Positions 1,477 to 6,407 of a stretch of DNA of 6,407 bases are shown piece after piece. Source of the DNA: a virus; the IMG/VR virus record IMGVR_UViG_3300023487_000050, positions 1 to 6,407 of that record. One strand, written 5' to 3'. How positions within the stretch are numbered: position 1 is the stretch's first letter; each line of letters starts with the position of its first letter. The notes below the pieces were generated by a model. It saw only the letters and a list, made by a program, of their open reading frames with translations. It had not been told where the DNA came from and made no database searches. The position numbers and the translations under genes are program-made.

Positions 1477-1499
1477 AGCCGGGTGTTACCCGGCTTTTT
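1477..1499 (+). terminator. Rho-independent terminator downstream of VP2
   Basis: AGCCGGGT (1477-1484) pairs perfectly with ACCCGGCT (1488-1495) around a 3-nt loop GTT and is followed by a T run (1495-1499). It starts 6 nt after the VP2 stop codon. Confidence 0.8.
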
Positions 1500-1519
1500 A
1501 CGATTTATTCAAAAATCGT
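1500..1519 (+). other. Second hairpin directly abutting the terminator
   Basis: ACGATTT (1500-1506) pairs with AAATCGT (1513-1519), giving a 7-bp stem with the 6-nt loop ATTCAA. Its 5' arm is one copy of the 9-mer TTACGATTT, which recurs at 1590-1598. Confidence 0.5.
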
Positions 1520-3037: not shown

Positions 3038-3045
3038 TATCTTTG
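3038..3045 (+). promoter_or_regulatory. Bacteroidetes-type -7 promoter box (TAnnTTTG) for the small-ORF plus VP1 transcription unit
   Basis: TATCTTTG at 3038-3045 lies 40 nt upstream of the ATG at 3085, in an intergenic region. The same octamer recurs in the other large intergenic region (6159-6166). Only a partial -33 element is present (TTTA at 3018-3021). The box sits in the loop of a 7-bp inverted repeat, ATTCCTT 3032-3038 / AAGGAAT 3058-3064. Confidence 0.5.
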
Positions 3046-3793: not shown

Positions 3794-5992
3794 ATGGCAC
3801 AAAACATTTTTGACGCTACATTTGATGCGAATAATCGTATAGACGTAAATTCTTTTGATTGGTCTCATGTAAATAACTTGACTACTGATTTTGGTCGTAT
3901 TACTCCTGTATTTTGTGAGCTTGTTCCTGCCAAAGGGTCTCTTCGTATTAATCCCGAGTTTGGACTTGAATTGATGCCTATGGTATTCCCTGTTCAAACA
4001 CGTATGTTTGCTCGTTTGAACTTCTTTAAGGTTACTCTTCGTTCAATGTGGGAGGATTATTCTGATTTTATTTCGAATTTCCGTGATGACCTTGAAGAAC
4101 CTTATATTTTGCCTGACTCTTTTCGATTTGAGAAAATGTGTAAAACTGGTTCGTTAGGTGATTATTTAGGTCTACCTACTTTTGGAACTAAATCTTCAAA
4201 GGTTTATAATTTTGTTGATAATCCTTGTGCTGCTCGCTCACGCACCGTTTCATCCTCTGATTTAGATAAGGTTATGGCATCGGTTCGCTCTGGTCATGGC
4301 TTCCCTGATAGTCTCTGTGCTTCTACCTTTACTCCAGGTGTTTCGAAAATCGTTTCGTTCACTTCTACAAAGTCCTCTAATCCTATTGCGTCTGATATTA
4401 TTCAGATTGGAGTTGATATTACCATTTCTGGTGGTGATTCTGCAGCTTTTGACGGTGCACAAGGTTATTTTGTTTCTCTTTCTGAAGATAATAAATATCT
4501 TTTTGATGTGCCAATTACTTTAAAGTCTGAAAAAGGTGTTATTATGGCTCATATTAGTTCTGTTGAAGCATCTAAATTTGGCTCTTCTTATGGTATTCCG
4601 CTTGTTATTGTTAATCCTTCTAATATTACGGATGTTATTAGCTTTGATAATGTTAAGTTTTCTGTAGTTTACACAACTTATTCTTTACAGTCAGACGTAT
4701 CTTATCTTACTTATCCGTTTGCTACTGAATCTCGCCCGGATATTTCCCGTTTATTGGCTTATCGTTTCCGCACTTATGAGTCTGTATATAATGCGTATTA
4801 TCGTGATATCCGCAACAATCCATTTATAGTTAATGGTCGTCCGGTTTACAACAAGTGGTTGCCTACTATGAAAGGAGGTGCTGACACTACACTGTATGAG
4901 CTTCATCAGTGTAATTGGGAACGTGACTTTTTAACTACTTCTGTTCCGAATCCTCAACAGGGTGCGAACGCTCCTCTTGTTGGACTTACTGTTGGTGATG
5001 TTGTTACTCGTTCTGAGGATGGAACTTACTCTGTACAAAAACAAACTGTTCTTGTTGATGAGGATGGCTCTAAATACGGTGTATCTTATAAAGTGTCTGC
5101 AGATGGTGAACGCCTTGTCGGTGTTGATTATGACCCTGTTTCGGAAAAAACGCCTGTAACAGCTATCAATTCTTATGCTGAATTGGCTGCCCTTGCGACT
5201 GAACAAGGTTCAGGCTTTACAATTGAAACTCTCCGGTATGTTAATGCTTACCAAAAGTTTTTGGAACTTAACATGCGTAAAGGATTTTCCTACAAACAAA
5301 TTATGCAAGGTCGTTGGGATATTGATATTCGTTTTGACGAGTTGTTGATGCCTGAATTTATCGGAGGTATCTCTCGTGAATTGTCTATGCGTACCGTTGA
5401 ACAAACCGTTGATCAGCAAAATGAAAACTCTCAAGGCCAATATGCTGAAGCTCTTGGCTCAAAAACTGGTATTGCTGGTGTTTATGGCTCTACACCTAAT
5501 AATATTGAGGTTTTCTGCGATGAAGAATCTTATATTATTGGTTTGTTAACTGTAACTCCTGTACCTATTTACACGCAATTAATGCCTAAGGATTTTATAT
5601 ACAACGGTTTATTAGACCACTACCAGCCGGAATTTGACCGCATAGGATTTCAGCCTATTACGTATAAGGAAATTTGCCCAATGAATGTTGTTGCAAATGA
5701 CAGTGCTAATCAATTGAGTAGAACGTTTGGCTATCAGCGTCCATGGTATGAATATGTAGCTAAATATGATAATGCGCACGGTTTGTTCCGAACGAGTATG
5801 AAAAATTTTGTCATGTCTCGTGTGTTCTCTGGGCTTCCTCAACTCGGTCAGCAATTTTTACTTGTTGACCCTGATACGGTTAACCAAGTATTCAGCGTTA
5901 CCGAGTACACGGATAAGATTTTCGGCTACGTGAAGTTTAACGCTACCGCTCGATTACCAATTAGTCGTGTTGCGATACCGCGATTAGATTAA
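3794..5992 (+). CDS. VP1: Major capsid protein VP1 (phiX174 F-protein family), 732 aa
   Basis: This is the largest ORF. Several microvirus F/VP1 signatures are visible in the translation: N-terminal FDWSHVNNLTTDFGRITPVFCELVPAKGSL, then GDYLGLP, then LAYRFRTYESVYNAYYRD, and TIETLRYVNAYQKFLELNMRKG. The large size fits Alpavirinae-like capsids. Confidence 0.95.
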   Translation: MAQNIFDATFDANNRIDVNSFDWSHVNNLTTDFGRITPVFCELVPAKGSLRINPEFGLELMPMVFPVQTRMFARLNFFKVTLRSMWEDYSDFISNFRDDLEEPYILPDSFRFEKMCKTGSLGDYLGLPTFGTKSSKVYNFVDNPCAARSRTVSSSDLDKVMASVRSGHGFPDSLCASTFTPGVSKIVSFTSTKSSNPIASDIIQIGVDITISGGDSAAFDGAQGYFVSLSEDNKYLFDVPITLKSEKGVIMAHISSVEASKFGSSYGIPLVIVNPSNITDVISFDNVKFSVVYTTYSLQSDVSYLTYPFATESRPDISRLLAYRFRTYESVYNAYYRDIRNNPFIVNGRPVYNKWLPTMKGGADTTLYELHQCNWERDFLTTSVPNPQQGANAPLVGLTVGDVVTRSEDGTYSVQKQTVLVDEDGSKYGVSYKVSADGERLVGVDYDPVSEKTPVTAINSYAELAALATEQGSGFTIETLRYVNAYQKFLELNMRKGFSYKQIMQGRWDIDIRFDELLMPEFIGGISRELSMRTVEQTVDQQNENSQGQYAEALGSKTGIAGVYGSTPNNIEVFCDEESYIIGLLTVTPVPIYTQLMPKDFIYNGLLDHYQPEFDRIGFQPITYKEICPMNVVANDSANQLSRTFGYQRPWYEYVAKYDNAHGLFRTSMKNFVMSRVFSGLPQLGQQFLLVDPDTVNQVFSVTEYTDKIFGYVKFNATARLPISRVAIPRLD

Positions 5993-6014
5993 GAAAATAA
6001 TTTTTTCTTTTTTT
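5991..6014 (+). terminator. Weak A/T hairpin plus T tract overlapping the VP1 stop; possible leaky terminator
   Basis: AAGAAAA (5991-5997) pairs with TTTTCTT (6003-6009) around the loop TAATT, followed by TTTTT (6010-6014). The stem has only one G:C pair, so stability is doubtful. It lies within a 19-nt all-pyrimidine tract (6001-6019). Confidence 0.25.
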
Positions 6015-6035
6015 CTTCCGACATTGCATTTCTCT

Positions 6036-6158
6036 GGCATGTGTGTGCGACTTGCTCCAAGGGTTCTAGTAGTAATAATTGTTAAATATTAGAACTCTGT
6101 TATAATATTTAATCAATTATTAGCACTAGGTTCATTGGACTTGTCGCGCGCGCATACC
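6036..6158 (+). repeat. ~123-nt imperfect palindrome (rod-like hairpin) in the main noncoding region; candidate ssDNA origin or structural element
   Basis: The pairings were read by hand. Outer stem: GGCATGTGTGTGCGAC (6036-6051) with GTCGCGCGCGCATACC (6143-6158), giving 12 Watson-Crick pairs, 3 G:T pairs and 1 mismatch. Next: TCCAA 6056-6060 with TTGGA 6135-6139, and CTAGT 6066-6070 with ACTAG 6125-6129. Core: TAATAATTGTTAAATATT 6073-6090 with AATATTTAA-T-CAATTATTA 6104-6122, 18 bp with T6113 bulged. The apical loop is AGAACTCTGTTAT (6091-6103). Confidence 0.75.
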
Positions 6159-6166
6159 TATCTTTG
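6159..6166 (+). promoter_or_regulatory. Bacteroidetes-type -7 promoter box (TAnnTTTG) for the 107-aa ORF plus VP2 unit
   Basis: TATCTTTG at 6159-6166 begins immediately after the 3' arm of the long palindrome and is identical to the box at 3038-3045. The shared context is C-Y-TATCTTTG-Y-A. Partial -33 candidates are TTGG at 6135-6138 and CTTG at 6140-6143. The next ATG with a long ORF is at 6346, implying a ~170-nt leader. Confidence 0.45.
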
Positions 6167-6184
6167 CAATTTCGTAAGATTAAA

Positions 6185-6311
6185 AGGGAAAAGTATTTTC
6201 CCTCTGCGTGAAACGCAAATTAATAGCAACTCTGTTGCGTGCGTCAGGGATAGTAGGCGAGTATCGGAGTGAAACGGAGATATGTTTGAGCCGGATAGCC
6301 CGCCCGGACGC
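6185..6311 (+). other. GC-rich cluster of triloop mini-hairpins plus a 71-nt imperfect rod, in the leader or origin region
   Basis: Hairpin 1: AGGGAAAA 6185-6192 / TTTTCCCT 6196-6203, loop GTA. Hairpin 2: TGCGT 6205-6209 / ACGCA 6213-6217, loop GAA. Hairpin 3: GCAAC 6226-6230 / GTTGC 6234-6238, loop TCT. Rod: GCGTC-A-GGG 6241-6249 pairs with CCC-G-GACGC 6303-6311 and encloses GGC/GCC (6256-6258 / 6298-6300), TATC/GATA (6262-6265 / 6294-6297) and GG/CC (6266-6267 / 6291-6292). The octamer GTGAAACG occurs twice (6208-6215, 6269-6276). Confidence 0.55.
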
Positions 6312-6345: not shown

Positions 6346-6407
6346 ATGGCTAGAAATACAAAACCGGATTATAAATCCGTAACATGTGAATTTGATGTAC
6401 AAAAAGA
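6346..6407 (+). CDS. 5' end of the junction-spanning 107-aa ORF (continues at position 1 once the 55-nt overlap is collapsed)
   Basis: ATG at 6346-6348 followed by GCT AGA AAT ACA AAA CCG GAT... (MARNTKPDYKSVTCEFDVQK). From 6353 onward the sequence duplicates 1..55 and is in frame with the ORF that ends at 317. Confidence 0.7.
   Translation, partial: MARNTKPDYKSVTCEFDVQK
6353..6407. repeat. Terminal redundancy: second copy of 1..55
   Basis: Exact 55/55 identity with 1..55. Confidence 0.9.

Follow-up and report, generated by a model that had tools for sequence, protein, structure and literature searches.

A 208-nt strand-specific hairpin rod with a Bacteroidetes-type promoter in its bubble: a candidate complementary-strand origin in gut microviruses

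Every microvirus requires a complementary-strand origin, and microviruses are among the most abundant of human gut phages. To our knowledge, where the complementary strand starts is known, among microviruses, solely for phiX174 and G4. The minus origins of phages M13, f1, and fd consist of hairpins which mimic promoters, to which host RNA polymerase binds, and from which a short RNA primer results. Single-stranded-DNA promoters, such as Frpo and the M13 minus origin, have in common a fold of one strand, promoter elements found on one arm of that fold, a -10 which is mispaired, and a location, in an ssDNA replicon, within its chief non-coding region. Frpo and ssi, which are promoters of this kind from the leading regions of F-like plasmids, are said to have been described by Masai and Arai in 1997. 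Promoters of the Frpo type are described as well in PMC11541004. With phiX174 and G4, the complementary-strand origin lies after the capsid gene (PMC9865509). Hairpins of the reekeekee- and roodoodoo-microviruses, in turn, have been proposed as negative-strand initiation sites, these microviruses being unrelated to phiX, with their function described by the authors of that proposal as one that cannot be certified (PMC9865509). A first-pass annotation of the DNA considered here had stated that no such element has been defined for non-phiX microviruses, which requires some qualification, as candidates, albeit unverified ones, have been put forward for those two other clades (PMC9865509).

Within the literature searched, the structure described here, a ‘rod’, has not been described previously. 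It is of a known kind, since ssDNA replicons do have hairpins which serve as strand-specific signals, but its design is new, with a Bacteroidetes promoter found in the bubble of a 208-nt rod. The window, meaning the whole 6,407-nt stretch of DNA that was analysed, holds the whole of a circular microvirus genome, with its opening 55 nt recurring at its end and a unit length, therefore, of 6352 nt. Every gene of this genome is found on the + strand, and third codon positions on that strand are 46-54% T (NNT codons). As T-rich third codon positions are a packaged-strand signature in ssDNA phages (PMC3278643), the + strand is taken here to be the virion strand. A tRNA and tmRNA search found none. 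The main genes are as follows.

3794-5992, + strand: VP1 major capsid protein gene (732 aa)
6346 to 317 across the repeated ends (6346-6407, then 56-317), + strand: orfX (107 aa), the first gene 3' of the rod promoter, with pilot and Rep following
314-1471, + strand: pilot protein gene
1637-2992, + strand: rolling-circle Rep gene, after which come small ORFs

The rod begins 1 nt past the VP1 stop codon, directly after the capsid gene. No ORF of at least 50 aa overlaps it on either strand, and the ORF annotated across the rod in Tortoise microvirus 1 probably is spurious. What had been reported initially was a 123-nt palindrome of about 43 bp at 6036-6158, with an AT-rich core stem, a (CG)4 run, and a TGTGTG paired with CGCGCG via three wobbles, and all of this is seen. 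Folded as DNA, the + strand of 6036-6158 reaches -28.4 kcal/mol with 47 pairs (z = -8.0), versus -9.5 +/- 2.4 kcal/mol for shuffles, none of 200 of which folds as well. The AT-rich core comprises 19 pairs, the (CG)4 run occupies 6146-6153, and the TGTGTG at 6041-6046 does pair with CGCGCG through three T:G wobbles. The - strand of the same stretch, at -21.0 kcal/mol (z = -5.2), folds less well, as had been suggested, though still into a strong hairpin. As RNA the values are -55.7 kcal/mol for + (z = -10.3) versus -45.0 kcal/mol for -.

The boundaries, by contrast, do not hold up, for while the hairpin is real, 6036-6158 is too narrow, this being the fast-evolving inner part of a 208-nt rod. 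That is, the arms 5993-6028 and 6165-6200 pair too, as an inverted repeat which is 81% complementary, so that 5993-6200 as a whole forms one continuous rod with 80 pairs (as seen upon folding of 5993-6205). As DNA its energy is -45.7 kcal/mol on the + strand (z = -10.0) versus -40.4 kcal/mol on the - strand. No other local structure in the genome comes near it in strength, 210-nt windows averaging -18.3 +/- 5.8 kcal/mol. Its parts, along with those of the promoter which it contains, are listed here.

5993-6028, + strand: 5' outer arm, with conserved polypyrimidine block GAAAATAATTTTTTCTTTTTTTCTTCCGACATTGCA; pairs with 6165-6200; 78-100% identity across lineages
6029-6035, + strand: 5' side of the bubble, facing the -7 box; unpaired in the fold and the most variable stretch of the element
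6036-6158, + strand: inner rod, i.e., the hairpin as first reported; 51-61% identity between lineages, yet paired
6039-6051 with 6143-6155, + strand: alternating TG/CG stem of the inner rod
6056-6060 with 6135-6139, + strand: TCCAA/TTGGA stem of the inner rod
6061-6065 with 6130-6134, + strand: invariant GGGTT/GTTCA non-canonical pairing of the inner rod
6073-6091 with 6103-6122, + strand: AT-rich core of the inner rod
6093-6101, + strand: apex of the inner rod, AAC-TCT-GTT
6134-6137, + strand: -33-like ATTG on the 3' arm, within the TTGGA/TCCAA stem, 21 nt upstream of the -7 box
6159-6166, + strand: -7 box TATCTTTG, of sigma-ABfr type (TAnnTTTG), its first six bases forming the 3' side of the bubble
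6165-6200, + strand: 3' outer arm, conserved and purine-rich; pairs with 5993-6028; 77-98% identity across lineages
6186-6202, + strand: alternative hairpin GGGAAAA-GTA-TTTTCCC, found in the centroid structure and competing with the outermost rod

Transcription from the double-stranded promoter is presumed to run first through the 3' outer arm, and the alternative hairpin at 6186-6202, going by the predicted fold, could form in a transcript starting at the rod promoter. Read from the alignment, G-to-A in this hairpin is paired with C-to-T in two homologues (L006, L005). Rfam, as searched with the window plus ten related genomes, has no family for the rod, the best scores being for models of plant microRNA precursors, matched just as long hairpins of a generic sort, at 32.8 bits versus a threshold of 245.

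Conservation of the rod was considered in terms of an alignment of 63 distinct homologues from gut microviruses, with the RNAalifold consensus spanning outer as well as inner stems. Standard pairs are found in 99.2% of 3707 cells, versus 89.5% with 500 shuffles and approximately 50% when the pairing partner is slid by 1-3 columns. Changes on both sides are seen at 29 of 59 pairs, where the shuffle mean is 15.9 (with none of the 500 reaching 29) and slid controls give 3-10. Related genomes, that is, have kept the palindrome, and compensatory changes among them are abundant. Those of the outer stem are found at alignment pairs 23:200, 24:199, 28:194, and 33:189. In three lineage types C-to-T at 6019 goes with G-to-A at 6174, in two homologues (L030, L074) T-to-A goes with A-to-T, and, in the outer stem of the D-type rods introduced below, an extra T is matched by an extra A. 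These outer-stem compensatory events are independent. In the inner rod, 6062/6133 (alignment pair 71:153) covaries from G:C to C:G.

Within paired columns there are 347 G:T cells versus just 4 that are A:C or C:A, and in all 63 rods the + strand exceeds its complement in stability, on average by 7.2 kcal/mol (DNA parameters). It is upon the + strand fold that selection therefore acts, with the wobble asymmetry and the uniform difference in stability together showing the rod to be a selected, + strand-specific structure. The earlier proposal of a fold favoured specifically in the + strand is to that extent borne out. The asymmetry is expected for packaged ssDNA and for sense RNA alike and does not tell the two apart. 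As all 63 rods are homologous, their geometry is to be counted as one evolutionary observation.

The primary sigma factor of Bacteroidetes has as its consensus TAnnTTTG at -7 along with TTTG near -33 (PMC7366714). The promoter-like TATCTTTG box had been placed correctly, as starting at 6159, but it is not merely adjacent to the hairpin; instead it sits within a conserved internal bubble. All 63 rods have CCTAnnTTTGCA without variation, the nn alone differing among them (tc, cc, tt, ct), and in each of the 63 there is a 6x7-nt internal loop at TAnnTT, 6159-6164 facing 6029-6035. The opposite side of this bubble occurs in 25 variants over the 63 homologues, and at most 2-3 (once 4) of its bases are complementary to the six of TAnnTT. 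The first six -7 bases always are unpaired, that is, because the 7 nt opposite never complement them. It is as a bubble that this loop has been conserved. In the fold, by contrast with these six bases, pairing is seen for the spacer as well as for the -33-like element. That ATTG matches the consensus TTTG at 3 of 4 bases, is replaced in one homologue (L022), and is separated from the -7 box by 21 nt in 61 of the 63 homologues and by 20 nt in the other 2.

With the consensus elements on the 3' arm, the template for an RNA polymerase bound to the folded strand would consist of the 5' arm plus the ssDNA upstream, which is the direction for minus-strand priming. Just downstream of the predicted start, on the template arm, is an invariant polypyrimidine run, 5996-6018. 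A second TATCTTTG promoter box is found at 3038-3045, in the intergenic region between Rep and a small ORF, and there it is without a hairpin, folding being below the genome average. A duplex promoter, that is, needs no mirror arm. The pilot gene, in turn, is followed at 1477-1502 by a short GC-rich terminator hairpin plus T-run, AGCCGGGTGTTACCCGGCTTTTT, so terminators of the window genome look unlike the rod. A different promoter, a sigma-70-like TTGTTA-16-TATAAT over the loop (6079-6106), was set aside, being at chance level (1 found versus 1.4 expected), absent from other lineages, and of the wrong type for the presumed host.

Downstream of the rod, and outside of it, are further folded modules.

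6205-6217, + strand: mini-hairpin TGCGT-GAA-ACGCA, an adjoining module
6226-6238, + strand: mini-hairpin GCAAC-TCT-GTTGC, an adjoining module, with AAATTAATA between the two mini-hairpins
6241-6311, + strand: Flavo-1-like module closed by GCGTC/GACGC, so called from its fold and from sub-threshold Rfam scores in relatives

The mini-hairpins covary, from GCGTGAAACGC to GCGCGGAGCGC and from GCAAC/GTTGC to GCAAT/ATTGC. Rfam RF01705 (Flavo-1) scores in relatives are 39.3, 39.1, 33.2, and 30.1 bits versus a gathering score of 42, and a search of the window's own copy at 6241-6311 with RF01705 gave no match. For Flavo-1 no function is known, and in Flavobacterium it occurs both along and against the direction of transcripts (PMC9723704). 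The downstream modules display no strand bias in their folding, so provide no direct evidence as to DNA versus RNA. Their orientation is informative in a different way. In one clade, here ‘R-type’ (L037, L045, L051, L054, L066, L091, L095), these modules occur without the rod and on the strand opposite all genes. Third codon positions of this clade, and of GenBank's Tortoise microvirus 13, are 43-57% A and 7-22% G, which mirrors the T-rich, C-poor pattern otherwise usual. According to Roux et al. (PMC3394797), the family has next to no known genes on the complementary strand, and the R-type clade may package the strand which is antisense to its genes. The modules thus track the T-rich strand rather than transcription, which, as seen over one evolutionary inversion, suggests that the non-coding region works at the level of DNA.

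The element is found, by blastn versus GenBank phages, in microviruses of rodent, tortoise, and lemur guts, with matches to microviruses only. Pattern scans of viral and metagenome contigs supply many further copies, all true matches being on contigs of microvirus size. The 15-nt promoter core by itself also matches unrelated large phage contigs (L008, L010, L011, L012), and gapped-pattern matches in four others (L021, L024, L026, L028) are due to chance. An additional contig (L111), of 43.7 kb, carries microvirus genes and was considered as a prophage; its ORFs are all phage-like and on one strand, and it is without the rod. For the rod-associated adjacent module, a search of bacteria (185,579 species, one genome each) supplied no real copy, the single match being a chance one to a Methylobacillus coding region. 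Metagenome contigs with this module number 66, all no longer than 12.8 kb.

Two gene orders are relevant here. In the ‘A-type’, that of the window, the order is VP1, element, orfX, pilot, and then Rep. In the ‘D-type’ it is instead VP1, scaffold, pilot, small ORFs, element, and then Rep. VP1 and Rep of the D-type are approximately 21-24% identical to those of the window, while identity in the rod's outer arms is 78-100%, a disparity which implies that the cassette has been exchanged between distant lineages. That lineages differing in gene order and in VP1 and Rep have it in common fits an element which is read by host machinery. Among A-type genomes, VP1 identity is 70-94% versus approximately 95% for pilot and Rep, placing a module boundary near the rod. 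The promoter-in-hairpin design is dispensable in at least one lineage, as a variant seen in L032 and L067 keeps the apical hairpin while both outer arms and the promoter box are absent. In rod-less relatives no TAnnTTTG was found after VP1, and these therefore must prime differently. Directly after VP1 they do have a hairpin, which is short and GC-rich, consists of (CG/TG)n, and includes wobbles.

That the rod is a complementary-strand origin, whatever its mechanism, is on balance probable. More specifically, and tentatively, it is possible that the rod is a minus-strand origin working as a folded single-stranded-DNA promoter, and of the specific explanations considered this is the one we put forward as best. 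Under such a mechanism, the rod would stay double-stranded in incoming, SSB-coated ssDNA, where it would resemble a promoter which has been pre-melted at -7. Host RNA polymerase with sigma-ABfr would bind to the rod, start near 6171-6174, and copy the 5' arm, from 6021 down to 5993. The polypyrimidine template would give rise to purine-rich RNA in a stable hybrid, and DNA polymerase III would then extend this primer around the circle to yield the replicative form. Once this duplex has formed, the bases of the rod would act in it as an ordinary promoter, serving orfX, pilot, and Rep. G:T wobbles, in turn, would keep + pairing while leaving the duplex an imperfect palindrome, which would limit cruciform formation as well as minus-strand pairing. 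Somewhat doubtful is the full dual use, that is, with the rod being an early sigma-ABfr promoter in the replicative form but, upon refolding of the packaged strand with the -7 box melted, also a site at which RNA polymerase makes a purine-rich primer.

The -7 box being inside of the bubble points to an RNA polymerase-dependent mechanism, of the Frpo or M13 type, rather than to a primase site of the G4 type. Counting against the folded promoter are the -33 match, at just 3 of 4 bases and lost in L022; the G:T wobbles and covariation, which are equally expected for sense RNA; and various inner-rod features which it does not explain, i.e., the islands CCAAGGGTT and TGTTAAAT along with the GTT/GTT mismatches.

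Alternatively, the rod could act as RNA, that is, within a read-through VP1 mRNA as a terminator, as a protective 3' hairpin, or as an RNase III-type processing site, setting the message for the capsid apart from the operon downstream, and overlapping with a promoter simply because the genome is compact. Such a role is suggested by the rod's placement 1 nt past the VP1 stop along with its fold as RNA (-55.7 kcal/mol, z = -10.3), and it also would explain the strand asymmetry, given that G:U pairs are normal and only the sense RNA is made. The inner rod, furthermore, has a GC-rich base which is followed by UAUCUUUG (5 U in 8), and rod-less relatives have their short (CG/TG)n hairpin just after VP1. 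The supposed U-tract, however, is enclosed by the covarying outer stem, a terminator consensus scan did not call the inner rod, and the clear terminator of the window genome is instead a short hairpin plus T-run. D-type rods, in addition, do not follow VP1, and the base of their inner rod is weak and AT-rich. An RNA role also has no part for the -7 bubble nor for the invariant polypyrimidine 5' block, and the neighbouring modules are oriented by T-rich strand, not by transcription. We consider this explanation unlikely, if still a serious one. A complementary-strand origin read instead by host primase or by a PriA primosome, as with G4 oric or the phiX174 n' site, and with the promoter overlapping only, would draw upon the same structural evidence (covariation, + strand stability, G:T excess). 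The adjoining mini-hairpins have GNA loops, which are unusually stable in DNA. The invariant GTT opposite GTT, the G:A beside CCAA/TTGG, and the bulge at TGTTAAAT could be features recognised by protein, both rod-less relatives and the L032 variant keep a promoter-free hairpin, and the position after the capsid gene is that of phiX174 and G4 (PMC9865509). What would go unexplained are the constant unpairing at -7 and the top conservation of the outer arms (from the transcription start to about +35, plus the partner of that stretch), and in sequence the rod is unlike the elements of G4 and phiX. We consider this reading distinctly unlikely.

The remaining explanations are less probable still. 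In one the rod acts as duplex DNA, with a cruciform or Z-DNA (at the CG/TG tract) regulating the embedded promoter, or else with the rod being mainly a hot spot for recombination, at the capsid cassette's boundary. Alternating purine-pyrimidine tracts indeed are found in most lineages, variously placed at base or apex, and the step in identity between VP1 and pilot/Rep is near the rod, in a cassette which is exchanged between lineages. A cruciform requires both strands, though, while selection favours one (347 G:T versus 4 A:C), and the alternating tract is missing from several rods (L003, L063), so that a duplex role seems improbable. In the other the rod is a folded attP like that of CTX-phi, through which host XerCD would integrate the ssDNA genome at dif. 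The conserved TGTTAAAT has what we take to be a resemblance to the XerD arm of dif. Integrase-less microvirus prophages with flanking dif-like sites are found in Bacteroidetes, and for some of these a CTX-like mechanism has been suggested (PMC3091885). The best match in the genome to a 28-nt dif consensus nevertheless is 21 of 28, falls outside of the rod, and is within the 20-23 seen with shuffles. Nor was there an integrated copy of the adjacent module among the 185,579 species (one genome each), and the 66 metagenome contigs are all at most 12.8 kb. With the dif match at chance and no integrated copy found among the genomes and contigs searched, an XerCD attP was rejected as highly improbable.

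The rod, as a candidate origin, is both concrete and testable, in that its bases and its bubble are defined, while its start site and its sensitivity to rifampicin are predicted. If it does function as proposed, then no RNA-polymerase-primed origin would have been known before it in the Microviridae, nor would any single-stranded-DNA promoter have been described before it in Bacteroidetes, and it would also be a portable cassette which is swapped among unrelated gut microviruses. A folded promoter would, furthermore, extend the ssDNA-promoter principle to Bacteroidetes and their unusual sigma factor, i.e., beyond enterobacterial plasmids and filamentous phages, and would supply a compact ssDNA-to-dsDNA conversion signal for the engineering of Bacteroides phages and vectors. 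The exchange of the cassette between distant lineages means that it is non-coding cassettes, in addition to genes, which are shuffled among gut microviruses.

Comparison with known systems may begin with the rod's own family. Like the phiX174 n' site and the G4 origin, the rod is a hairpin element found, in the window, after the major capsid gene (PMC9865509), and where those elements are needed on the packaged strand (PMC9865509), it is there that the rod folds best. Those elements, however, are 45-140 nt in length, are recognised by PriA or DnaG, are promoter-free, and have no sequence or Rfam similarity to the rod. The hairpins of reekeekee- and roodoodoo-microviruses are, like the rod, conserved, intergenic, and marked by compensatory substitutions (PMC9865509), but they are 13-64 nt in length, without a promoter, and without reported strand asymmetry (PMC9865509). 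Rolling-circle plasmid sso elements (ssoA, ssoU) resemble the rod in being non-coding imperfect palindromes, of 150-300 nt, which are used in one orientation, and with them a primer is made by host RNA polymerase; the type of replicon and the phylum of the host differ from those of the rod, and the ssoA-defining RSB and CS-6 motifs were not found upon reading the rod.

Closer are those systems in which a fold stands in for a promoter. As with the minus origin of M13, f1, and fd, the rod is an intergenic hairpin of an ssDNA phage which adjoins other replication signals, though M13 uses two separate hairpins and sigma-70 while the rod is one 208-nt structure with a single bubble, and no homology between them was found, the matches among GenBank phages being to microviruses only. 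Frpo and the rod are alike in being long imperfect hairpins of one strand, with host promoter elements on one arm, if with a weak -33-like element in the rod, and with mispairing at the -10 equivalent. The rod also lies, as such promoters do, in the main non-coding region of its genome. The RNA which is made by Frpo on ssDNA can prime DNA synthesis, and its template-arm geometry is of the same direction as that inferred for the rod. Any relationship would be one of analogy rather than of homology, and it is in three respects that the rod departs from Frpo: it possesses the Bacteroidetes TAnnTTTG in place of TTGACA/TATAAT, it is phage-borne, and it would double as a duplex promoter.

Positions 1-55 of the window recur at 6353-6407. 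This terminal direct repeat of 55 nt shows the genome to be circular, with a unit length of 6352 nt, and orfX spans the junction between window end and start. Two further features of this genome lie elsewhere:

Window 3038-3045: another TATCTTTG promoter box, with no hairpin, located 5' of VP1 (major capsid protein) and of the small ORFs.
Window 1477-1502: a canonical terminator-like hairpin plus T-run, 3' of the pilot gene.

Among genomes which share the window's gene order (A-type, i.e., VP1, element, orfX, pilot, Rep), those with pilot and Rep approximately 95% identical to the window nevertheless span from 70% to 94% in VP1 identity, as exemplified by loci L016, L031, and L055 versus L009 and L032. 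This disparity suggests that the capsid cassette has been exchanged, with one boundary of what would be exchanged falling near the rod, the long fold just after VP1. Two variant genomes (L032 ~980-1160 and L067 ~985-1165) retain an apical hairpin of 27 bp, perfectly paired and with TTGTTAAAT, but possess neither of the outer arms nor the TAnnTTTG box. In Tortoise microvirus 1 (L003 2206-2499, MK765551.1), a GenBank hypothetical protein, QCS36754.1, spans the rod; as a counterpart ORF is missing from the window as well as from most relatives, this annotation probably is spurious. Elsewhere, the Rep (rolling-circle initiator) gene of Dulem virus 256 (L006 3327-5017, PP511387.1) is annotated as a join of two pieces, which could represent a frameshift or instead an intron-like interruption.

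Relatives lacking the rod, with VP1s that are 47-57% identical, have, immediately 3' of the VP1 stop codon, a short hairpin that is built of alternating (CG/TG)n and contains G:T wobbles:

Contigs L105, L109, L111, and L112: (CG/TG)n hairpin, just after VP1.
Contigs L106 and L115: (CG/TG)n hairpin.
Contigs L110, L113, L114, and L116: (CG/TG)n hairpin.

Within rods, the alternating CG/TG tract is found at the base in the window type and at the apex in other types, and it is not present in L003, L063, L032, L117, or the R-type clade (a third clade, in which neighboring modules occur without a rod). One of these rod-less contigs, L111 (1-12470 of IMGVR_UViG_3300029532_000171, 43.7 kb), combines a microvirus gene set with further same-strand ORFs; it may represent an integrated form, a chimeric contig, or a concatemer. 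Common to rod-less A-type relatives and the R-type clade, in addition, is a GC-rich structured element of approximately 150 nt, for which an Rfam search was without match. Its pattern is …CGTTTGA.CGC.GATGG…GGGCGC.TAGCCCT…CGTCTAG.ACCTTG.TATC…, in gene sense in the former and antisense to genes in the latter:

L106 ~4620-4760: GC-rich element.
L037 ~3900-4150, after orienting the contig: GC-rich element.

Third codon positions are 43-57% A and 7-22% G in a single clade consisting of L037, L045, L051, L054, L066, L091, L095, and L123 (Tortoise microvirus 13, MK765563.1), a composition which mirrors the usual T-rich, C-poor pattern. These are true microviruses, i.e., as possessing a Phage_F capsid and a Rep domain. 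Where contigs of this clade carry the conserved non-coding module, homologous to window 6203-6311, every gene is on the strand opposite to it. For Tortoise microvirus 13, neither strand yielded a blk3b-like match. The packaged strand in this clade may be antisense to genes, which, if true, would make these negative-sense microviruses.

The module itself comprises two mini-hairpins followed by a structure resembling Flavo-1, an Rfam motif (RF01705) of unknown function (PMC9723704). Relatives match Flavo-1 slightly under threshold (39.3, 39.1, 33.2, and 30.1 bits vs 42), and the window copy, 6241-6311, has no Rfam match:

Window 6241-6311; L018 3736-3813; L001 2476-2535; L020 296-363; L017 3506-3573: Flavo-1-like structure, 3' of the mini-hairpins.
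Window 6205-6238: mini-hairpins GCGT-GAA-ACGC and GCAAC-TCT-GTTGC.

Both mini-hairpins display compensatory changes between lineages, with a conserved G-R-A triloop. This mini-hairpin region could be the Rep nick site, and its spacer, AAATTAATAGCAAC, resembles the core of the phiX174 plus-strand origin.
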